DNA of 64,000 nucleotides, from the NCBI GenBank assembly GCA_000092065.1, contig CP000589.1. One strand, written 5' to 3'. How positions within the stretch are numbered: position 1 is the first letter of the stretch; each line of letters starts with the position of its first letter. Both the position numbers and the translations under genes were made by a program. Below are positions 4,804 to 59,862 of the stretch, piece after piece. The notes beneath the pieces are model-generated. The model ran no database searches. It saw only the letters and a list, made by a program, of their open reading frames with translations, and was not told where the DNA came from. This stretch comes from Ostreococcus lucimarinus (lineage: Eukaryota).

Positions 4804-4985
4804 CTGCGCGCGTCGAGAAAACACAAACTCATCGTCAGTAACCGTGAAACACGCGAGCAATCACACAAACACCGTCCTCGTCGTCCGAACGAGTGCGAAA
4901 GAGCACGACATCAACCGCCGCGCTCGAGCGTCCCGACGCTCGTTCACGCGCGCTTCGCCGAGGGATCTCGCGGTCGCTCGCGTAC

Positions 4986-5043: not shown

Positions 5044-5127
5044 CTACGAACGCAATCACCCCACGTCAGTCTCTTTCGCCGCCCTCTTTCACCGCAAACG
5101 GCGCATTCGCGTCGCGTAAATCCGCAT

Positions 5128-5157
5128 CCAAATTCAAATTCAAATTTCAAATTTTAA
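5128..5157. repeat. (AAATTC)n / (CAAATT)n AT-rich microsatellite inside MYB3R intron 1.
   Basis: ccaaattcaaattcaaatttcaaatttta on the plus strand. It is an AT island in GC-rich DNA. Confidence 0.6.
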
Positions 5158-5162
5158 CGCAC

Positions 5163-5217
5163 CTCCTCGGGTGTCCATCCTCCTTTGGCGCTTCTCCGCG
5201 TCGGTCCTCCGATCTTC
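5163..5217 (-). CDS. MYB3R: MYB3R upstream exon fragment encoding ...KGGWTPEE, the start of repeat R1. Its 5' boundary and the initiator ATG are unresolved; further exon(s) probably lie between about 5220 and 5600.
   Basis: GGA TGG ACA CCC GAG GAG|GTGCGT donor at 5162. Spliced to the micro-exon it yields KGGWTPEEDELLRGAVAVYGGRNWKKIA, the canonical W-x2-EED-x2-L R1 start. An in-frame stop upstream and no ATG imply at least one more upstream exon. Confidence 0.45.
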
Positions 5218-5715
5218 CTGCTCGCGACGCGCGCACGGCGCGAAAGTCAGTAAATCATTCTCGCGTTTCGCGCTCGTCGCGACGACGCACCCATCACCGA
5301 ACGCGCGCGGCGCGAGTCGGTCGTTCGAATGCGGTCGCGATGCGCCGGCGTCGCGACGCGTCGCTTTCTTCGCCGCTTTCCGACTTCCGGACGCGCTCGC
5401 GCGACCGCTCGATCGCGCGCCGGATTTCTTTTTCGTCTTTCGCGGCGACGGCGGCGACGGCGAGCGTCCGCGCGCGGGCTTCGTCGCGCGGCGCGCGCGG
5501 GCGACCATCTTCGTGCGCCGCGAACTGCGGGCGGCGTCGCGTCGTTCGGCTTCACTACGCGTCCCGTTTCATAAATGTTTTTAATACGCGTGTCACTGTA
5601 TGCGCAGCTCCGAGTTGTCTGATCGTGTACCACGCGCGGAGTCAACCGCGCGCCGAGTCGCCGCGCGACCGCGCGACACGGCGACGCGCGCGCGACGGCC
5701 CGGTCCGGTCCGCGC

Positions 5716-7756: not shown

Positions 7757-9733
7757 TCACGACGACGACGCGGACGCGACGACGGGCCGCGCGCGCGCCA
7801 GGGCGTCGGGAACGATGACCTCGGCGGTGACGTCGTCGAATTCGGGTTCGCCCAACCGTCGACGAACCATGCGATATAAATCAGGATTGGCGTCGATGCG
7901 CGGCTGAAACAACGAATCGCTCGCGCCGAAATACTTTGGCGATTTGAGCATCTTGTCGATCATGCGATGGACCCACGGAGCCATGACGCGAAGGACGAAA
8001 CGCACGACGGTGGTGGGGATGAAACGCATCTTGACGTCGGCGTGGACGACGATGTCGCCGCGGGTGCGGATGGATTTTGAACCGGCGACGGGCGGGAGCG
8101 CGCGCATGCGCATGCCGCAATTGCCGACGAATTCGATGCGCTTGCGCGATTTGGCGGACGGTGGCGCGCCCGAACCCAGGTCGTCGCCCGATTTGTTGGT
8201 TCGAGTGATTAATATCGCACACGAATGCGGGACTTCTGATTCGAAATCATCCATGCCGGGGATGTTCAAGTGATCGTACGCTCGCGTCGGCGGTTGACCG
8301 ACGTACGTGGAATCGATGACGATGATTTTGTCTCGAGCGCTCAGCGGCCAGGGAAGCCAAATGGCGGAGTATACGACCAAGTGCGTGAGCCCGCGAACGA
8401 GCATTATGGACGTTTCTATGGCATAGACGTTCCAAAGCGTCATTAAATCCCACTCGCGCGCGATGGCGACGAGTCTATGCGGCGGCGCGTCAAACGTCGC
8501 GCTCAGTTTGATGCTGTGCACCGTTCCGCCTTTGAAGCGTCCGTAATATATCACCAAACGCTCGTCCAAATCAGGGTCGGCCTCGAACGTTTCTTGCACC
8601 ACCCCCGGGACGCCAGCGGTTCCACGCACGCTGCTTTCACCTCCGCTCTCGCTCCCGCTCAACGGATCTGGTTGCGTCGCGATGACGGCGCCGTCGCTCG
8701 AACTCACGCTACCGCTCCTCGAGTGTCTGCTTCGTCTCCGACGTCCATACCGAGGCGCCAACGGGTCTTCTTCACCGTCCGACATCGACGCGCGCGAACT
8801 CGCAAGATCGGTGAGTTCGCCAAAATCAATCACGCCTCGTTTCTCCCTATCCGTCCGTCCTAAACTCACCTCGACTTCGGCGCCCGACTGTCGCAAACTT
8901 CTCCGAGCGTCGTTCGCGCCCCCACGCTCGAAATCCACGCTCGAAGCCCACTGTCGACTCAACCCTCGCCCTAAATCTATGCTCGACGTCCGTCGACTCC
9001 CGCTCTCGCTCGCTCGCATCCGCCCGAAATCCACGCTCGACGTCCTCCGCATCCCAAAGTCCACGCTCGACGCTCGCCGGCTGTGATTCGCTCCAATGAT
9101 GACCTCCGCGTCCACCTCCACGCTCGCCTGTCGCCGATGATGCGCCGCTCGCTTCGCCCCCTTATCCACCGGTTTCCACCCATCGTGATGTTCCTCTAAT
9201 TCAACGTCGTTCAGCGCGATCGCTTGTTCGTACACGTCCCGCCACGCCTCGCGTCGACGCGTCGACGCCTCGTCCCGCGCGCTCCCCGTCGCGTCCTCCC
9301 GCGCCACCATCCACAGCGCCGCCTCGAGCTCGCCGAGCGCCGCCAACCGTTCGGCATCGTTCGCGCACGCGTCCACCGTCGTCAGCGCGTCCGCGCGGCC
9401 GATCCACTCGCGCCGCGCGCGCGCGACGTCGAAATTCGCGTCGCATCGCACGTCGTCGTCCCAATCGATCTCGAACGCGTCGTGACGCGCGTCGTGGAAC
9501 GCGTCGTGGAGCGCGTCGACGTCGGCGTCGGCGCGCGCGACCGCGTCTCCATCGTCGGCGCGCGGTCTGCAGCAGCGCGCGCCCATGACGGGCGCGCGTC
9601 GCGCGATGGCGCGTCGCGCGCGCCGCGCGTTCGTTAAATACGGTGATTGATAGCGTTCGCGCGCGCGCGAGGCATCGCGCGACCGCACACGCGCGCGCGA
9701 CGCGCCGTCGCGAGCGAACGCGCGAGGGAACAT
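7757..9733 (-). CDS. START (StAR-related lipid-transfer / Bet v1-like) domain protein with a repetitive low-complexity N-terminal region.
   Basis: The C-terminal half has START-like motifs (LPWPLSARDKIIVIDSTYV ... RFVLRVMAPWVHRMIDKMLK). The N-terminal region carries degenerate repeats (SSVDFGMRRTSSVDFGRMRAS...SSIDLG...SSVDFERGG) encoded by a DNA tandem repeat near 8900-9100. Confidence 0.6.
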   Translation of the reverse strand: MFPRAFARDGASRARVRSRDASRARERYQSPYLTNARRARRAIARRAPVMGARCCRPRADDGDAVARADADVDALHDAFHDARHDAFEIDWDDDVRCDANFDVARARREWIGRADALTTVDACANDAERLAALGELEAALWMVAREDATGSARDEASTRRREAWRDVYEQAIALNDVELEEHHDGWKPVDKGAKRAAHHRRQASVEVDAEVIIGANHSRRASSVDFGMRRTSSVDFGRMRASESGSRRTSSIDLGRGLSRQWASSVDFERGGANDARRSLRQSGAEVEVSLGRTDREKRGVIDFGELTDLASSRASMSDGEEDPLAPRYGRRRRSRHSRSGSVSSSDGAVIATQPDPLSGSESGGESSVRGTAGVPGVVQETFEADPDLDERLVIYYGRFKGGTVHSIKLSATFDAPPHRLVAIAREWDLMTLWNVYAIETSIMLVRGLTHLVVYSAIWLPWPLSARDKIIVIDSTYVGQPPTRAYDHLNIPGMDDFESEVPHSCAILITRTNKSGDDLGSGAPPSAKSRKRIEFVGNCGMRMRALPPVAGSKSIRTRGDIVVHADVKMRFIPTTVVRFVLRVMAPWVHRMIDKMLKSPKYFGASDSLFQPRIDANPDLYRMVRRRLGEPEFDDVTAEVIVPDALARARPVVASASSS

Positions 9734-10191
9734 GCGCGCGATTACGATGGAGGTCCCGGTCGACGCCGCGGCGCCGCGGCGCGCGCGCGCGAGCGAGACG
9801 ACGAAGGAAACGATGCGCGCGCGGGTCAGGGTTGCGCGCGCGCGGTGCGGGACGACGAACGCGCGAGACGGCGCGCGCGACGTCGCCGCGCGCGCGGGAC
9901 GACGCGTGGAGGTGCGTGTGATATCGCGCGATCGCGCGCGCGCGCGACGACCGGCGGAGAGACGCGGAAAGGGCGATCGGAGGCGCGGCGGTGCGCGACG
10001 CTGGTGGTGGGTTGAGGGTTAGAGCGCGAGGGCGCGCGACGGCGTCGAATTCGGTTCGCGACGAAGACGATGGACGCCGATGCGCGGCGATGCGAACGCG
10101 GGAAAACGCACGAGACTGACGGTGTGAATTGTGGTCGTTCGCGCTGACGCAGACGCGGGCGTCGTCGGATGCGATTCCGGATTCGTTTAAG

Positions 10192-10776
10192 ATGCCGTTT
10201 CGACCGTCGCCGAACGGGAACAAGGGCAAGGGATTTTTAGAGTTGTGGTTCGGCAGGGACGAGGCGAACGAGGGTAAGATACGACCGGCGCCCTATTTGC
10301 GAATCTTGGCGGTGATACCGTTCGTGATTCCGTTGATGGGGACGATTGCGTTCACGCACAGCGCGTACGAGTTTTTGCCGCTGTTCAAGCACGCGATGTT
10401 CATCTTCGCCCCGGCGATGCAGCTCTTTTACGGGAACTCGTTCATTCCGTTCATGACCTTCTTCGCGCTGTTCTTGCTCGTCGTGCGTAACGAGAAGATT
10501 CCGTACTTTGTGCGGTATTGCACCATGCAAGCCATCTTGCTCGACATCTGTTGCATGCTCGGCGGTTTGATCATGCAATACATGCCGATTTTCATAATGG
10601 TGAGCTGGGTCGGCGAGTGGATGGAGCTTTGGATCTTCGTCAACTCGTTCTTCGCGCTCGGGTACTCCATTTTCAACGCCCTTCAGGGTTTGATCCCCGA
10701 AGCGCCGCTGATCTCCGAAGCCGTGTACGCGCAAGTCCAGGAAGCTCGCGACACGGGGTACATGGAGGAGGAGTGA
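10192..10776 (+). CDS. TIC20: Tic20-family protein (chloroplast inner-envelope translocon Tic20/HP20-like), four predicted TM helices.
   Basis: PYLRILAVIPFVIPLMG ... FVRYCTMQAILLDICCMLGGLI matches the Tic20 signature (FVRFNAMQAVLLD). The first ATG in the frame is at 10192; the track start at 10129 is a TTG. No obvious transit peptide is present in this exon. Confidence 0.65.
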   Translation: MPFRPSPNGNKGKGFLELWFGRDEANEGKIRPAPYLRILAVIPFVIPLMGTIAFTHSAYEFLPLFKHAMFIFAPAMQLFYGNSFIPFMTFFALFLLVVRNEKIPYFVRYCTMQAILLDICCMLGGLIMQYMPIFIMVSWVGEWMELWIFVNSFFALGYSIFNALQGLIPEAPLISEAVYAQVQEARDTGYMEEE

Positions 10777-16251: not shown

Positions 16252-16725
16252 TTAACCCAACAGCTTGACGATTTTCGCTTCGTTATCCGCCGCGCCGTCC
16301 CCGTTGCGTTCGACGACGTTTCCATCGCGATCCACCAAAAACTTACACGCAAAGTTCCATCGCACGTCGGATTCATCCCCCGACGCCTTTTTCAAGAACG
16401 TCCACACCGGCGACGCGTCCGCGCCGTTCACGTTCGTCTTCGCCGTCACCGTCGGCGCCGTCTCGAATTCTTGCTTCGCCACGAACGCCGCGATGTCCTC
16501 CGCCTTCGCCAGCTCCTGTCCCCCGAACTGCCCGCTCGGCGTGAGCACGACGACTAAATCCGGCGAGTACTTGTTCGACAAGTCGCGCAGCGCCGCGTAC
16601 TCGCGCTTCGTCGCGCCTCACCTGCTCGCGACGTTCGTCACGAGCACGACTTTGCCCTTCATCGATGCAAACTCGATCGTCGAGCCGTCGAGCGCGGGCG
16701 CGCGCAGGTCGTGGAACGCCGCCAT
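16252..16725 (-). CDS. GPX: Selenocysteine-containing glutathione peroxidase (GPX). The in-frame TGA at 16620..16618 is read as Sec. One continuous reading frame spans track ORFs 16618..17460 and 16252..16581.
   Basis: FHDLRAPALDGSTIEFASMKGKVVLVTNVASR-[TGA]-GATKREYAALRDLSNKYSPDLVVVLTPSGQFGGQE ... VNGADASPVWTFLKK...DVRWNFACKFLVDRDGNVVERNG. The TGA sits exactly at the catalytic Cys/Sec of the NVAS(K/Q)[C/U]G(x)T motif (human GPX1 VASLUGTT). An alternative upstream ATG at 16815 would add an R/A-rich possible targeting peptide. Confidence 0.75.
16618..16620 (-). other. In-frame UGA (selenocysteine) codon of the GPX gene.
   Basis: TGA flanked on both sides, in frame, by conserved GPX sequence. 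Confidence 0.7.
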
Positions 16726-16818
16726 CGCGCGCGTGACTCTTCCGCGCGCGCGCTTCGAGCGAGCGACGCGCGCGGGCGCGAACGAGCGAGCGAACGCGCC
16801 GAGCGCTCGCGTCATACT

Positions 16819-21297: not shown

Positions 21298-21570
21298 ATG
21301 TCCACCACCGTCGCGCTGCGCCACGCGCGACGATGCGCGAAAACTCTCTTCGCCCGCACCGCCGCCCGCGCGAACACCGCGGCGTCGCAGGCGTCGATCG
21401 ACGCGTTCATGGAAAAGTTTGACGTCGCGAAGACGAGCCCGACGATGGACCGTCCGAGCACGCCCACGACGTTCGCGAGCGCGCCGGTCGAGGAGAGCGC
21501 CAAGGGAACGGCGGATAAGTTGAAGCTGAATTTCTACCTCCCGCACGAGGTGGCGCACGACGAGGAGGAG
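21298..21570 (+). CDS. ATP5D: Mitochondrial F1-ATP synthase delta subunit (ATP5D/ATP16), exon 1: presequence plus mature N-terminus.
   Basis: R-rich presequence MSTTVALRHARRCAKTLFARTAARAN, then KLKLNFYLPHEVAHDEEE, corresponding to MSFTFASPTQVFFNGANVRQ of ATP5D. Donor GAG|GTGCGCGAG at 21571. Confidence 0.7.
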
Positions 21571-21811
21571 GTGCGCGAGCGATGCGAGACGCGATGGGAC
21601 GGTGATCGCCCGATGGGGTTGCGGCCAACGAGTGGAAGGCGTGGGTTTGACCCGAACGCGAAGGAGACGCGCGCGAACGCGCGACGAGGCGCGGGTCGGA
21701 CGCGGCGCGCGCGGAACGATCGCGCGATGGTGGGATGGTGGCGCGCGGCGAGCGATGACGCGGGATCTCGGAGCGATGACTGACGGAACGACGAGCGTCG
21801 CGCGCGCGCAG

Positions 21812-22162
21812 GTGGACATGGTGCTCGTGCCGGCGACGACGGGGGACTTTGGAATCTTACCGGGACACGTGCCGACGGTTTCGCAGCTGCGACCGGGGGT
21901 GGTGAGCGTGCATTTGAACGATAAAGACGTGAAGAAATACTTCGTCAGCAGTGGATTCGCGTTCGTGCACGCGGATTCGACGGCGGATATTTGCGCCATC
22001 GAGGCGGTGCCGGTGGAGCAACTCGACGGGGACGCGGTGAGGAAAGGGTTGGCCGAGCATCAGGCGAAATTTACGAACGCGAAGGATGATTTCGAAAAGG
22101 CGAACGCGCAAATCGGTATCGATGTGTGCAACGCCATGGTGGCTGCGCTCGACGCCAAGTAG
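21812..22162 (+). CDS. ATP5D: Mitochondrial F1-ATP synthase delta subunit, exon 2.
   Basis: VDMVLVPATTGDFGILPGHVPTVSQLRPGVVSVHLNDKDVKKYFVSSGFAFVHADSTADICAIEAVPVEQLD matches ATP5D (VDVPTLTGAFGILAAHVPTLQVLRPGLVVVH...KYFVSSGSIAVNADSS). Acceptor CGCGCAG| at 21809..21811. Intron 21571..21811 (241 nt). The reading frame shifts from frame 1 to frame 2. Confidence 0.8.
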   Translation: MDMVLVPATTGDFGILPGHVPTVSQLRPGVVSVHLNDKDVKKYFVSSGFAFVHADSTADICAIEAVPVEQLDGDAVRKGLAEHQAKFTNAKDDFEKANAQIGIDVCNAMVAALDAK

Positions 22163-22212: not shown

Positions 22213-24717
22213 TCAGCCGGCGGCGCTCGCGATGACGATGGAACGGTCGGCACCGTTTACACCGCTCTTTTTCTTCCGCAACAACGCCAACTCGTCGTGC
22301 AACATCGTTAGTTCGTGCGTGTACGCGTCCTTGTGCGCGATGAACATCTTTAGCTCGCTTCGCAAGCCTTTGATTTGACGCGACTTTTCCTTGATGTGCG
22401 CGTGCGTCTCTCGTAGCTCCTCAAACGCTCGAGGTCCGGGTTGACGGGACAACACCACGCGAAGTTCGGCGAGTACTTTTGTTTTCTCGCTAATCAGAAT
22501 GTCTTTCGTCGTCACTTCTTCCGTTTTCGTGATCAGTTTGCGCTGCAACATTTGAACTTTCTGAATCAACTCGTACATAGTCGGATCGCTGCCTTTGAGC
22601 TGTCGCCAACGATGGACATTCATCGGATTCTCGAGTTCCTCGCTGAGTGCCTTAACTTTTGTGCGTTCGTGGAGAAGTTCGCGACCAAGCGTTTGGACTT
22701 CGTGCTTCAACGCATCGATGCTTGCCGCCGCTTCTCGCAGGGACGTGAGTTCTTGCGCGTGCGACGCCAATCTGAGCTTCAACGTTTTAATCTCGCGAAC
22801 GCGCTCACGATACTCGGCTTGGCCTTGATTCAAAATTTTCTGCTGAACCTTGACTTTCTCGTAAAGTAGCGCGCATTCTTGATTCCGCTGCACAAGTTGT
22901 GCGTTGAGAACGTCACGATCACGCTTGATGACATCGAGCTGCTTGCGATGCGCCTCGCGACTTTCTCGCAACGACGCCACAGATGAGCGTAGCGTCTTCG
23001 ATTCATCACTCGTATGCTTCAGAGACTCTTGCGTCTCGCGAAGCGTCGAGTTTAGCTTATCATTCTGTCGTCGTAGAGCATCGTGTTCTTTGTCCAACTT
23101 GCGATGCTCGAAACGCTCGCCCGCGATGACGGCGTCCTTCATTCTAAGTTCCTCGTGCAAACCTTCCATCGCCACAGTCTTGGCCTTGAAATCGCGTTTG
23201 ATCTCCGCAATTTGTGACTGGGCCTCGACGAGAGACTTTGATTGTTGATTGCGTTCCGCGCACACGACGTCGTACGCGTGCTCGGCTTGCTTAATTTTGC
23301 TTTCTGCATCTTGTAATTCTTGCCGTAAATCAACGATTTGAGACTGTCGATCATGAACGTCATCCTCCAACTTTTCCTGACGACGCACCGCCGCCGCGAT
23401 GTCCGCCAATAACTTTGCACGTTCTTGATCGAGACTTTTTATCTGCATCTCTTGCTTAACTTGTTCGCGTTTGTAACTCTTGATTTCGTTTTCGAGTGTT
23501 TGACGCTGCGCCTCATGAATACGCAGCAAATCTTGTTGCCGACTTGTGGCGTTCTGCGCCTGCGTAGTCGTCTTCAGAAGGACATCGCGCTCGCGCATAA
23601 GATCTTCTTTTCGCCTTTGCTCGTTATCTAAGTCTCTTTTTTGTTGCTCGAGACGTTGTTTGAGTAATTGAATCTCGCGCTTGAGCGCATTCTTTGCGTC
23701 GTCTGCGTTCAATTTCGTTTGCTCCGCCGCGCGGAGTTTAGACTCTAGTTGAGTGGACTTTTTTAAAGTACTCTCCTTTTCACGCTCGAGCGTTTTGATT
23801 TCATCGTTCAACGCTCGAATTTCGTGCATCTTGGCCGTGTTTGCATCCTCAGCACTCTTATTACTCGCGCGAGCTTCGTCAAGTTCGCGATGAAGCTTGT
23901 CAGATTTGCTCGCTAACACGTTCAACTCTTTCTGAGCCGCCTCTGTCCGTCGCTCTTGCAAACAAGTATCTTTTTCTAGCTTGATAATCATTTCGTCAGC
24001 CTTTGTTATCCTCGCTTTATACTCTCTGATCTCAATGTCGCGTTCTTCAGAGCGTTCCTGTACCTCGCGCATCTCGCGCTCGAGACGTTCCTTCGTGCGC
24101 TTTTGCCGCTCCACCTCCATCGCACTCGCGTGCGACAGATCACGTGCATTTTGTAATTCTACGTCTAAATCTAATTTCGTCGATTCAGCCTTTCTCGTTC
24201 GCTCCGATAGCTTATCGATATCCTCCCTGAGCCTGATGGTTTGCTCGAGTAATTCATCTCGTTCGGCGGTGAGACTCTCCTTGGCGCTCAGTAACGATTC
24301 AATCTCGCGCGAGTTCGCCCTTCGCGCACTCGCGCGCTCCATAAACAACCCATCACTGGTCGTCGTTTCGCAACCCCCTAGCTTGTCTTCATCTCGTGTC
24401 AGCCGTTCAATTTCCATCTTCAATTCGCTCGCCTCGCGCTTACTCGCCAACTCGCTCTCGTGCGATTCATCCACCATCGCCCACGCCTTCTCTAACTCTT
24501 CTTTGAGCGCATCGATGGTTGATTGATCTTCCCGCGACAAATCCAGCGTCATCATCATTTTCCTCGCCTGTCCGCGACACTCCTCCGCGAGCGTCGCGCA
24601 CTTTGCCGTCAACGCTCGCTCGCGCTCCGCGGCGTCCGCGAGCGCGGCCCTCACCTTATCGCACTCTTCTCGCACCTTGACCGCGCGCGCGTCGTCGCGC
24701 GGTAATTTTGATATCGC
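22213..24717 (-). CDS. Long coiled-coil protein, CCDC39/CCDC40-like (axonemal 96-nm ruler family), exon 2.
   Basis: About 830 aa of continuous coiled coil with a conserved C-terminal block (NPMNVHRWRQLKGSDPTMYELIQKVQMLQRKLITKTEEVTTKD...LSRQPGP). The track start at 24675 is a GTG. The frame stays open upstream to a CGCGCGCACAG| acceptor at 24718..24720. Confidence 0.6.
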   Translation of the reverse strand, partial: AISKLPRDDARAVKVREECDKVRAALADAAERERALTAKCATLAEECRGQARKMMMTLDLSREDQSTIDALKEELEKAWAMVDESHESELASKREASELKMEIERLTRDEDKLGGCETTTSDGLFMERASARRANSREIESLLSAKESLTAERDELLEQTIRLREDIDKLSERTRKAESTKLDLDVELQNARDLSHASAMEVERQKRTKERLEREMREVQERSEERDIEIREYKARITKADEMIIKLEKDTCLQERRTEAAQKELNVLASKSDKLHRELDEARASNKSAEDANTAKMHEIRALNDEIKTLEREKESTLKKSTQLESKLRAAEQTKLNADDAKNALKREIQLLKQRLEQQKRDLDNEQRRKEDLMRERDVLLKTTTQAQNATSRQQDLLRIHEAQRQTLENEIKSYKREQVKQEMQIKSLDQERAKLLADIAAAVRRQEKLEDDVHDRQSQIVDLRQELQDAESKIKQAEHAYDVVCAERNQQSKSLVEAQSQIAEIKRDFKAKTVAMEGLHEELRMKDAVIAGERFEHRKLDKEHDALRRQNDKLNSTLRETQESLKHTSDESKTLRSSVASLRESREAHRKQLDVIKRDRDVLNAQLVQRNQECALLYEKVKVQQKILNQGQAEYRERVREIKTLKLRLASHAQELTSLREAAASIDALKHEVQTLGRELLHERTKVKALSEELENPMNVHRWRQLKGSDPTMYELIQKVQMLQRKLITKTEEVTTKDILISEKTKVLAELRVVLSRQPGPRAFEELRETHAHIKEKSRQIKGLRSELKMFIAHKDAYTHELTMLHDELALLRKKKSGVNGADRSIVIASAAG

Positions 24718-24811
24718 CTGTGCGCGCGCGCGACGTCACGGCCGCGGTCAGTGCGTCGATCGCATCGTCTCGACGGTTCGCAGACTCGCCGAGAGCTTCC
24801 TAATATAGCAC

Positions 24812-24955
24812 CCGCGCGAGACGAAAGCGTGGGACGCCGACGCGCGCCGCACGCGCCTCGACGAACGCGTCCTCGTCATAATCACCAAGCGAGGTATCTC
24901 CTTCATCTAAGCTCGCTGTTTCGTCGTCGTCCGCGTCGTCTGCGTCCAAACTCAT
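24812..24955 (-). CDS. CCDC39/40-like gene, exon 1 (48 codons, acidic N-terminus).
   Basis: ATG at 24955. Encodes MSLDADDADDDETASLDEGDTSLGDYDEDAFVEARAARVGVPRFRLAR and ends at a GCG CGG|GTGCTA donor. Intron 24811..24718 (94 nt). The phase-0 join continues AISKLPRDDARAVKVREECDK. Coordinates were cross-checked against track ORF 24751..24978. Confidence 0.5.
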
Positions 24956-33357: not shown

Positions 33358-33466
33358 GTGCGCCCGCGACGCGCGTTCGCGTCGACCGATTGCGCGCGAC
33401 GAATGCGACTTAAAACGACGACGGCGCGCTTTCAGACTGACGATGAACGACGCGCGCGCGCGATAG

Positions 33467-41613: not shown

Positions 41614-42022
41614 AACGCGACGACCGAGCGCGCGCGCGCGCGAACGCGCGCGACGCTCGAGCGCGCGCGCGCGCGGTGAGAGCGTCGAGCGCTTTTGCGC
41701 GAGGCGAATCGCGGCGACGCGGACGCGGGCGAGGCGCGCGCGGGGGCGGGCGGGCGCGCGGGACGCGCGCGGGCGGTGGTGTCGAGGGCGATTCGACGAC
41801 TTCGCGACGATATGGCGTCGCAGCGGTGCGTGATTCGCGAGCGAGACGCGCGGTGCGCGGTGCGGGGGGGTCGTGAGCGTCGTTCGCGCGCGGTAGGGGA
41901 AGCGCGCGCGACGGGGGGCGCCGCGAGGGAGAATTTGAGTCGTGTTCTTAACAGAATTGCGAATTTGAATTCGGGCGGAAAGTCGACGATGACTGACGAC
42001 GCGCGAACGCGCGACGCGCAGG

Positions 42023-49955: not shown

Positions 49956-50122
49956 CGCGCGCGCGTTCGTGCGTCTCGCGAGGTCGTCGTCGCGACGCGG
50001 TGTGTCGGCGTCGCTCGCGAATCACATTCGCGAGGCGAAAACGCCCGCGCGAGGCGAACCACGACCACTGACTGACTGACTGCGCGACGTTACATTACAC
50101 TACGCGTAAAACAGCGAACGAG

Positions 50123-54168: not shown

Positions 54169-55944
54169 TTACATTTGGTCGAGATAGGCGCCGTAACCGA
54201 GCTCTTCGAGCTTGCTCGCCTTGTTCAACACGACGTTCTCCATGTCGTCTTGGTACGCTAACATTTTAGAGCACACGTCGGGCTCGAACGCGGCGACGAT
54301 GCGAGCGGCGATGAGACCGGCGTTGGCGCTGTTGCCGATGGCCACCGTCGCCACGGGAACGCCTTTGGGCATTTGAACGATGGAGAGCAAGGAATCCATG
54401 CCGTCGAGATACTTGAGCGGGACTGGGACGCCGATAACGGGAAGAGGGGTCATGGCGGCGACCATGCCGGGTAAGTGCGCGGCGCCGCCGGCGCCGGCGA
54501 TGATGGCGCGCAAGCCGCGCGTGTGCGCGCTTCTCGCGTACTCGTTCATACGCTCGGGCGTTCTGTGCGCCGAAATGACGGTGACTTCGCAACCGATGCC
54601 GAAAGATTCGAGGACCTCCGCAGCGGCGCTCATCGTGGGCAAGTCACTGTCGGAACCCATGATGATGCCGACTTGAGCCGCCTTCTTCGGCGGCGTCTTG
54701 TCCCCGCTCGCGGCGCGCAAAAGCGTGTCCAGACGCTCCGTCGCCACCGCCGCGCTCGGGCCGACGACGGTGAGGTGACCCATCTTGCGCGCGAGCTTCA
54801 TGTCAGGCTTTTCGTACCAGTGAATGCTCGCACCGGGAGTCGCTAGCGCGGCGCCCATGAGACGGTGCGCCCGGCCCATGGCCTCGTCGCCGTCGCCGTC
54901 TCCCAAAATATTCTTCATCACCGCCCCGCCAACCTTGAGCGAGGTGTCACCCAAGGGCCAACCCAAAATGGCGCGCAAGTGATTTTCGTACTGCGAGCAC
55001 GCGCAGCCTTCGATGGTGTAGTGACCGCTGTTGTGCGGTCTCGGCGCGCACTCGTTGAGCAAAATCGAGCCATCCTTGAGGAGGAAGAGCTCGACGCCAA
55101 AGATCCCCGCACCCGTGAAAGACCCGATCGCTCGCTTCGCCGCCGCTTGCACCGCTTCGGCAACTTTATTCGGAATCGGCGCCGGCGTCGTCGTCGTGTC
55201 GCAAATATTGTTTTCGTGAACGGTTTCGACGACGGGGTACGCCCGCGTCTCCCCATTCTTGGCGCGCACCACCATCACCGCCAATTCCTTCTCAAACGGC
55301 ACCCACTTCTCGCAATACAACCCTTGTTCAAACCCACCCAACTTCGCCACCGCATCGGCCAAATCCGCGGCGGTCTTCGCCACCGCGTTCCCGCGCCCGT
55401 CGTACGCCAAACGCTTGGACTTTAACATGAGCGGAAACCCAAACTCGCTCGCCGCGCTCTGCAACGCGGCTTCATTCGGGCAATCCGCGTACGGCCCGAG
55501 CGGGACCCCGGCGTTCGTGAAGTGTACCTTCTGCGCATACTTATCCTGAATCGTCGCCAACGTCTCCGGCGTCGGCTGCACGTCCACGCCCGCCGCGCTC
55601 AGCTCTCGCAGCGCCTCCACGTCGATGTGTTCAATCTCCACCGTCACCACATCGCACGTCTCCGCGAACGCCTTCACCGCCGCCTTATCCCTAAAACTCC
55701 CCACCACCTGCGTCGCCGCGATCGACGCCGGCGCGCGCTCCGTCGGATCCAGCGCTTTCAACCGCACCCCCATCGGCGCCCCCGCGATTGCGAGCATGCG
55801 TCCGAGCTGTCCGCCGCCCAATATCCCCACCCGACAGTCCCGTCCGTACCCCTCGAATCCCGGTTCATCGCTATCGCGTCCGCGCGCGTTCGCGCTTTCG
55901 TCAGTCCATCGCTCGATCGCTCGCGTCGTCCCGCGTTCGCGCAT
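54169..55944 (-). CDS. ADE2: Phosphoribosylaminoimidazole carboxylase, bifunctional PurK-PurE fusion (ADE2-type; N5-CAIR synthetase plus mutase).
   Basis: N-terminal ATP-grasp ([14 protein letters not shown]...; [18 protein letters not shown]). C-terminal PurE ([42 protein letters not shown]...[29 protein letters not shown]). ATG at 55944. Confidence 0.9.
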
Positions 55945-55966
55945 TCATTCATTCATTCATTCGCTC
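55942..55966. repeat. (CATT)5-6 microsatellite overlapping the ADE2 start codon / 5' UTR.
   Basis: gcattcattcattcattcattcgctcactcattcgcc. Confidence 0.5.
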
Positions 55967-56185
55967 ACTCATTCGCCCGGTTCAAACCGACGCACCTCAC
56001 TCGAAACTTGGCCTCCCCGCTCGCGCGCGCGCGCGTCCGGCGCGTTCGCCCGCGCGCGTTCGCCCGCGCGCATCGTCGCGTCGCGCGCGGCGCGCTCGCG
56101 TCGGTCGTCGCGCGCGCCGCGGCGCCCGTCATCGCCGTCGTCGTCGTCGATGTGACGACCGCGCGGCGGGCGGCGCGATCGCCCT

Positions 56186-59753: not shown

Positions 59754-59862
59754 CTGTTCGCGCGCGCGAAACGAATCCCACCCGTCGTCAGTCCCGCGTC
59801 CTCCCGGAATATTCCCGCGCGCGTCGTCGTCCGCGTCGCGTCGCGTCGCGTCGTTCACGCAC

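Follow-up and report, generated by a model that had tools for sequence, protein, structure and literature searches.

The window, by which we mean the whole 64,000-nt stretch of Ostreococcus lucimarinus DNA that was analysed, contains at 21298-22162 (+) the gene ATP5D, which codes for the delta subunit of the mitochondrial F1 ATPase. Its first exon, from the ATG to the donor (21298..21570), is placed by the spliced translation and by homologue alignment, and its second, through the stop codon (21812..22162), by translation and homologue alignment. The 241-nt intron between them (21571..21811) has the donor GAG|GTGCGCG, the branch motif GACTGACG and the acceptor CGCAG. Its ends read GAG|GTGCGCGAG...CGCGCAG|, and the branch A lies at 21783, 28 nt from the 3' splice site. 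Splicing changes the frame and yields a 207-aa product in which the Pfam domain ATP-synt_DE_N (residues 75-147) runs across the junction. This junction, ...PHEVAHDEEE|VDMVLVPATTGDFG... (HDEEE|VDMV), is gapless against full-length and partly transcript-derived homologues, while ORFs taken from metagenome DNA read through the intron, which then appears as an insertion in the alignment.

The position of the ATP5D intron is common to several Ostreococcus-like lineages known from metagenome loci. The donors of these relatives are GTGCGC, GTGTGC, GTACGT, GTACGC, GTGCGT, GTGAGG and GTACGA, and in the Ostreococcus-like relatives GACTGAC stands 22-33 nt from the 3' end of the intron. A sister lineage of about 96% DNA identity (loci L007 and L008) differs from the window by 25 substitutions and 6 indels in the intron and by 4 substitutions and no indels in exon 2. 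At the place homologous to 21779-21784 this lineage has the branch motif ATTGAC, not ACTGAC, and both ATTGAC and ACTAAC are also present in related introns of the CFAP58-like gene described below, which means that the branch consensus tolerates AYTRAC. Micromonas-like ATP5D loci carry a different intron, with a GTACGY donor and with CTGAC 41-50 nt upstream of its 3' end. This sole intron lies at or near aa 133/134, whereas the sole intron of the window gene lies at aa 91/92. One Ostreococcus-like clade has a second ATP5D intron at aa 133/134 (KK|YF; loci L031-L037 and L038-L081 were compared). These differing positions imply that introns were gained or lost within the order.

An earlier note on this DNA had drawn six introns, in ATP5D and four other genes, all of which were said to start with GTGCG(C/T), GTACGC or GTGCTA and to end in YAG. 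The YAG ends stand and five of the six introns were drawn exactly, ATP5D among them. The ZNHIT3 intron (33358..33466, +, 109 nt; donor GGG|GTGCGCC, branch motif GACTGACG, acceptor GATAG) has its branch A at 33440, 26 nt from the 3' splice site. It separates a zf-HIT domain in exon 1 from ZNHIT3_C in exon 2, and the spliced protein of 140 aa is identical, residue for residue, to RefSeq XP_001419489.1. In the NDR/LATS-type kinase gene the intron is again 109 nt long (59754..59862, -; donor TCG|GTGCGTG, branch motif GACTGACG, acceptor AACAG; branch A at 59788, 34 nt from the 3' splice site). Its removal rebuilds the glycine loop GRGAF|GEVRL, without gaps against human STK38 (PDB 6bxi) and yeast Cbk1. 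The two MYB3R introns, which keep here the numbers given to them earlier, measure 119 nt (intron 1, 5044..5162, -; donor GAG|GTGCGTT, branch motif GACTGACG, acceptor CGTAG) and 182 nt (intron 2, 4804..4985, -; donor TTG|GTACGCG, branch motif TACTGACG, acceptor CGCAG), with branch As at 5066 and 4835, 22 and 31 nt from the respective 3' splice sites. After splicing, the MYB3R repeat R1 aligns to the R1R2R3 structure of c-Myb (PDB 1h88, E = 3e-64), and both junctions, WTPEE|DELL for intron 1 and WKKI|AVYF..RTDVQC for intron 2, are continuous with c-Myb R1.

The intron of the CFAP58-like gene

The sixth intron lies in a gene previously labelled CCDC39/40-like, which is a homologue of CFAP58 (Pfam CFAP58_CC, PF21771, E = 9e-44). 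Its acceptor at 24718 had been placed correctly and its GTGCTA donor had not. This becomes apparent when the locus is compared with related lineages, in all ten of which exon 1 ends with the conserved motif (D/N)E.(A/R)F..(E/Q), followed directly by a donor that reads GTGCGT, GCGCGT, GTTCGT, GTGAGC, GTTTGT or GTAAAC. At the homologous position, 24856, the window reads GTCGAG|GCGCGTGCGG, which fits GYGCGY. Given this homologous donor in ten lineages, the intron is 139 nt long, not 94, and starts with GC. The corrected GC-AG intron (24718..24856, -) has the donor GAG|GCGCGTG, the branch motif CACTGACC and the acceptor CACAG, with the branch A at 24748, 30 nt from the 3' splice site. Like that of ATP5D it is conserved in position in related lineages, where donor, branch point and acceptor are kept and the remainder has diverged.

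The donor chosen earlier, G|GTGCTATATT (GTGCTA, 24811), is in frame in the window and lies 45 nt downstream of the conserved one. The 13-nt string GCTATATTAGGAA follows GA, not GT, in the syntenic locus of a relative, and in the sister lineage it stands in a third reading frame. Between 24856 and 24718 that same lineage (L007/L008) differs by indels of 1 nt and 2 nt, of which one falls just upstream of the 24811 donor. A frame-breaking indel within 24812..24856 means that these 45 nt, taken earlier as exon, are intron, and in the compared loci indels that are not multiples of three occur only inside introns. The wrong donor had been picked because GT was required at the start of the intron; GC donors must be allowed. 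With the correction the range of intron lengths, once given as 94-241 nt, keeps its upper end and becomes 73-241 nt when the introns of the next section are counted. A homologue search with the N-terminus of the CFAP58-like protein returned three ORF fragments only, none of which bears on the junction.

The start of a conserved element, CTATATTAGGAA (24797..24808, -), is overlapped by the GTGCTA "donor". In its 12-13-nt form, CTATATTAGGAA(C), it is kept in all Ostreococcus-like lineages and occurs once in the window, and the Micromonas-like or Bathycoccus-like CFAP58 loci carry TATCTAAAAATAG(G/A) instead (loci compared: L005, L013, L031, L032, L010, L081, L045 and L055). In its general form, CTA-(A/T)n-TAG, the element is similar to a site of the MEF2/MADS type or to a TATA-like box. 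As a smaller possibility, the CTA(W)3-4TAGG element in this first intron may be a functional cis-element retained across the order. The GCTATATTAGG motif was also considered as a GC donor at GCTATA, as an AT-AG or U12-like donor, as an internal TATA box and as an upstream ORF, and all of these were dropped since relatives show the canonical donor 45 nt upstream. Wherever the CFAP58-like gene (22213-24955, -) was found in Mamiellales-like loci, it adjoins ATP5D. Ostreococcus is not known to have a flagellum, though CFAP58 is a cilia- and flagella-associated protein.

Introns at the 5' ends of genes

The earlier note had suspected that single-ORF models in the window miss short terminal exons. 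This is borne out by a scan in which all three signals (donor, branch point and acceptor) were required together: it gave four extra introns, all at the 5' ends of genes, one of which is confirmed by a RefSeq model. That one lies after codon 4 of a gene with a BAT2-N domain (41826..42021, +, 196 nt; donor GCG|GTGCGTG, branch motif GACTGACG, acceptor CGCAG) and has its branch A at 41996, 25 nt from the 3' splice site. The spliced product of 547 aa is identical to RefSeq XP_001419493.1.

For Tic20 a 241-nt intron is predicted at 9912..10152 (+; donor GAG|GTGCGTG, branch motif GACTGACG, acceptor CGCAG; branch A at 10119, 33 nt from the 3' splice site). The ORF of this gene matches exactly the RefSeq protein XP_001419482.1 (194 aa, O. 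lucimarinus CCE9901), which starts at an internal Met at 10192. Upstream of this ATG, the only one in the ORF, is a motif A-I-P-D-S-F that is conserved in Micromonas and Mantoniella transcripts, and the transcript-derived Tic20 proteins of these two genera have an N-terminal extension (presequence) of about 70-85 aa. Among the in-frame donors, none but that at 9912 agrees with the consensus at 5/5 positions. From the sequence, XP_001419482.1 appears to lack the transit-peptide exon and so to be truncated at its N-terminus. With the predicted intron the gene spans 9732-10776 (+), and its transit-peptide-like exon covers 9732-9911.

There are two other predictions. A 5' intron of MYB3R (5218..5290, -, 73 nt; donor TGG|GTGCGTC, branch motif TACTGACT, acceptor AGCAG; branch A at 5247, 29 nt from the 3' splice site) is predicted from its signals and from the reading frame: the exon at 5217..5163 has no in-frame ATG after the upstream stop, and splicing joins it in frame to an ATG at 5508. 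The predicted 5' intron of PurK/PurE (AIR carboxylase; 55871..55995, -, 125 nt; donor GAG|GTGCGTC, branch motif GACTGACG, acceptor GATAG) has its branch A at 55901, 30 nt from the 3' splice site, and would join a 45-aa transit-peptide-like presequence, rich in Arg, Ala and Thr, to the PurK domain. It is suggested by its signals, and the unspliced ORF from the ATG at 55944 is open as well. A (GAAT)n repeat inside this intron (55944-55965, -) makes several ATGs, one of which is in frame with the enzyme. For the MYB3R 5', Tic20 and PurK/E introns, alternative GC donors would be possible in the CG-repeat-rich sequence. An exact look-up in the protein collection found no sequence identical to the spliced ATP5D, NDR, MYB3R, PurK/E or CFAP58 models, which may reflect different start codons or RefSeq models that are missing or different.

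Signals shared by the ten introns

The ten introns of the window, 73-241 nt long, share nearly all of their splice signals. At the donor, G at -1, C at +4, G at +5 and a pyrimidine at +6 are found in every one of them and G at +3 in nine, and the extended donor G|GYGCGY is matched in full by 9/10, the exception being GTACGC with its A at +3. Nine introns are GT-AG and one is GC-AG, and all end in YAG. ACTGAC is present in 10/10 and GACTGACG in 7/10, with the branch A always 22-34 nt from the YAG. The pyrimidine tract usual in other organisms is replaced by a stretch rich in CG repeats (33-55% pyrimidine), and the introns as a whole have 49-72% G+C and many CG repeats. The window itself has 51-73% G+C in 2-kb steps and about 62% overall, which sets it outside the low-GC outlier region. 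The RefSeq proteins matched exactly by the Tic20 ORF and by the spliced ZNHIT3 and BAT2-N models all belong to O. lucimarinus CCE9901, a member of the Mamiellales.

Taken singly, neither the donor motif nor the branch motif is over-represented. The heptamer GGTGCGY occurs 34 times in the 64-kb window against 35.5 +/- 6.4 in shuffled sequence, and for want of enrichment it was dropped as a stand-alone signal; ACTGAC occurs 18 times against 18.4 expected. Looser scans (GTRCG with CTGAC, and GC donors with AYTRAC) gave dozens of candidates and were set aside as unspecific when used without coding context. The picture changes when the signals are required in order, as GGTGCGY, 30-300 nt, ACTGAC, 12-40 nt and YAG: this composite is observed 8 times against 0.44 expected from 200 dinucleotide-preserving shuffles, among which the maximum was 3, an 18-fold excess. 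The non-random features are that GGTGCGY is used at junctions defined by homology and that it occurs together with ACTGAC and YAG. Of the two motifs, the one at the branch point, overlooked in the earlier note, is more diagnostic than the donor. The whole arrangement, G|GYGCGY ... ACTGAC ... (22-34 nt) ... YAG, is specific enough to locate Ostreococcus introns without transcript data, and its value for annotation is seen in the short 5' exons recovered above, which bear start codons or transit peptides.

Two side observations concern the same signals. On both strands the pentamer CTGAC is scarcer than expected (71 against 99 +/- 10 in dinucleotide shuffles, about 2.7 sd in one window), as it would be if the branch-point motif were avoided outside introns. 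In addition, none of the ten intron lengths is divisible by three (chance about 1.7%), although 6/10 of the introns were first found via a frame change. Retention of any of them would thus always shift the reading frame. Such lengths are consistent with reports of selection for short introns that are visible to NMD.

Interpretation and comparison with published introns

We consider these to be, with a probability of about 0.95, ordinary U2-type spliceosomal introns of O. lucimarinus CCE9901 from the high-GC, intron-poor part of its genome, a reading that draws on the sequence comparisons above. The few introns that remain in the Mamiellales would have converged on strong signals that hardly vary. 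Their donor reads G|G(T/C)GCG(T/C), in many cases with G as the next base, and their branch motif is (G)ACTGAC(G), its A standing about 22-34 nt from the 3' end of the intron; a CG-rich stretch and a final YAG complete the set.

Composition offers a simpler account of the donor, in which GCG at +3 to +5 merely reflects GC- and CpG-rich sequence and only GT and the +5 G are real signals. The introns are indeed 49-72% G+C with CG repeats, GGTGCGY is no commoner than in shuffles, and relatives vary at +3 (A), +4 (T or A) and +6. We nevertheless think this improbable. Homologous introns of only 46-52% G+C in relatives still begin with GTTCGT or GTGCGT. C-G-Y occupies +4 to +6 in 10/10 introns, which has p < 1e-8 even if CG is allowed a generous 0.15 per intron, and GCG stands at +3 to +5 in 5/6 of the junctions fixed by homology or comparison (p about 3e-7 at about 0.035 per intron, by our own estimate). 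Moreover, within this one genome the introns of chromosome 2 use GTRNGT, whereas the 5' splice sites of the others hold 4.8 bits of information (PMC2483917). A more general worry is that GT...AG pairs had simply been picked so as to restore frames in GTGCG-rich sequence. GTGCG(C/T) occurs 176 times in the window, a nearby match is easily had, and one of the six original donors was wrongly picked. This can hardly be the explanation, given that homologues and RefSeq models pin the junctions down to the residue, that an independent motif, ACTGAC, stands 22-34 nt from the 3' splice site in every intron, and that the composite signal is 18-fold over expectation.

The remaining alternatives concern the origin and the removal of the introns. 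Mobile introner copies, as in Micromonas pusilla CCMP1545, would have similar ends through shared origin; introners with AG|GYGCGT are found in that related genus (PMC3879977), and two of the window introns are both 241 nt long. All-against-all blastn of the ten introns gave matches of at most 17 nt, however, most of which were CG repeats or came from the splice signals that the introns share. The two of 241 nt are not related to each other. In relatives, too, the orthologous introns have diverged everywhere but at their signals. Since no extended similarity exists among the ten introns searched in the window, they are not introner copies, and we hold an introner origin to be very improbable. 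Removal by a second, divergent spliceosome, either minor (U12-like) or lineage-specific, might be suggested by the atypical donor, and two spliceosomes for two classes of Ostreococcus introns were raised as a possibility by Irimia & Roy 2008 (PMC2483917). The U12-type donor RTATCCTT and branch site TCCTTAAC are absent from all ten introns, though, and ACTGAC fits the U2-type consensus CTRAY. The spliceosomal snRNAs are reported to be single-copy (PMC2483917), and in five Mamiellales just one U1 candidate was found, its pairing region being the standard one, unchanged (Roy & Bowser 2022 preprint, bioRxiv 10.1101/2022.06.08.495308). We give a second spliceosome next to no credence. Nor are these the BOC1 introns of the low-GC region of the outlier chromosome, defined in PMC2483917 and PMC3879977, which are very short and AT-rich, with a weak donor (GTRNGT) and no branch motif; those of the window are 73-241 nt long, with 49-72% G+C and strong motifs.

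As ordinary U2-type introns they should be recognized in the usual way. From general knowledge of splicing, U1 snRNA would pair with the donor by Watson-Crick pairs at -1G, +1G, +2U, +5G and +6U and by a wobble at +3G, leaving a mismatch at +4C, and U2 snRNA would pair with ACUGAC, a CURAY-type site, and bulge out the A. Scanned in full against Rfam, the window yielded no hit to any RNA, snRNAs included. The literature records no change in U1 that would compensate for the +4 C, which mismatches standard U1 here as reported for Thecamonas (bioRxiv 10.1101/2022.06.08.495308). Tentatively, the preference for C at +4 could be imposed by a lineage-specific change in the ACAGAGA region of U6, in U5/Prp8 or in U1-C/LUC7-type proteins, an idea that we find rather doubtful. 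If it were true, the Mamiellales would be a natural case in which donor recognition was re-tuned without co-evolution of U1.

The suggestion in the earlier note of a lineage-specific extended donor consensus agrees with what has been published for the species and the order. Irimia & Roy 2008 (PMC2483917; PLoS Genet 4:e1000148) examined 319 EST-confirmed O. lucimarinus introns outside chromosome 2 and described an "atypical consensus GTGCGTG"; the published donor, with its 4.8 bits, thus shows the enrichment that a donor logo had been expected to show. They found ACTGAC in 87% and GACTGACG in 66.5% of these introns, compared with 10/10 and 7/10 in the window. Like the published introns, those of the window are short and come from high-GC DNA with few introns, and we see no difference of substance between the two sets. 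To the published set the window adds one GC-AG example, in the CFAP58-like gene, and the 22-34 nt from branch A to 3' splice site. For Micromonas, Verhelst et al. 2013 (PMC3879977; GBE 5:2393) described canonical introns with AG|GTGCGT and an NCTGAC branch, and for the Mamiellales as a whole Roy & Bowser 2022 gave the donor preference GYGCGY. The observation made earlier is thus largely correct and its interpretation supported, and the feature is typical of the lineage and already known. The splice consensus has here been re-derived from raw sequence; as it was published for O. lucimarinus in 2008, it is nothing new to biology.

The comparison with other systems shows both likeness and difference. 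Canonical Micromonas introns are like those of the window in AG|GTGCGT, in NCTGAC and in tolerating GC donors (GYGCGT), but their branch point is reported to lie 43-52 nt from the acceptor (41-50 nt in the Micromonas-like ATP5D loci), against 22-34 nt in the window. The introner elements of Micromonas (IE-A to IE-D) have a similar donor, AG|GYGCGT, with GC donors reported among them (PMC3879977), and IE-C has the branch motif GACTGACG; they are multi-copy repeats, whereas the window introns are unique sequences. Other intron-poor eukaryotes with strong-consensus introns, Saccharomyces for one, likewise have few introns with a bias to the 5' ends of genes, near-invariant signals and a constrained distance from branch point to 3' splice site, but their consensus sequences (GTATGT and TACTAAC in Saccharomyces) are different.

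Two minor features of the window are recorded here. A tetranucleotide repeat, (ACTG)n, at 50067-50082 (+) adjoins the end of a gene. The glutathione-peroxidase gene at 16252-16815 (-) has an in-frame TGA (16620-16618) at its active site (LVTNVASR[TGA]GATKREY), where the ORF calls are split into 35 and 98 aa. Selenoproteins are known in Ostreococcus, and this TGA looks like a selenocysteine codon.
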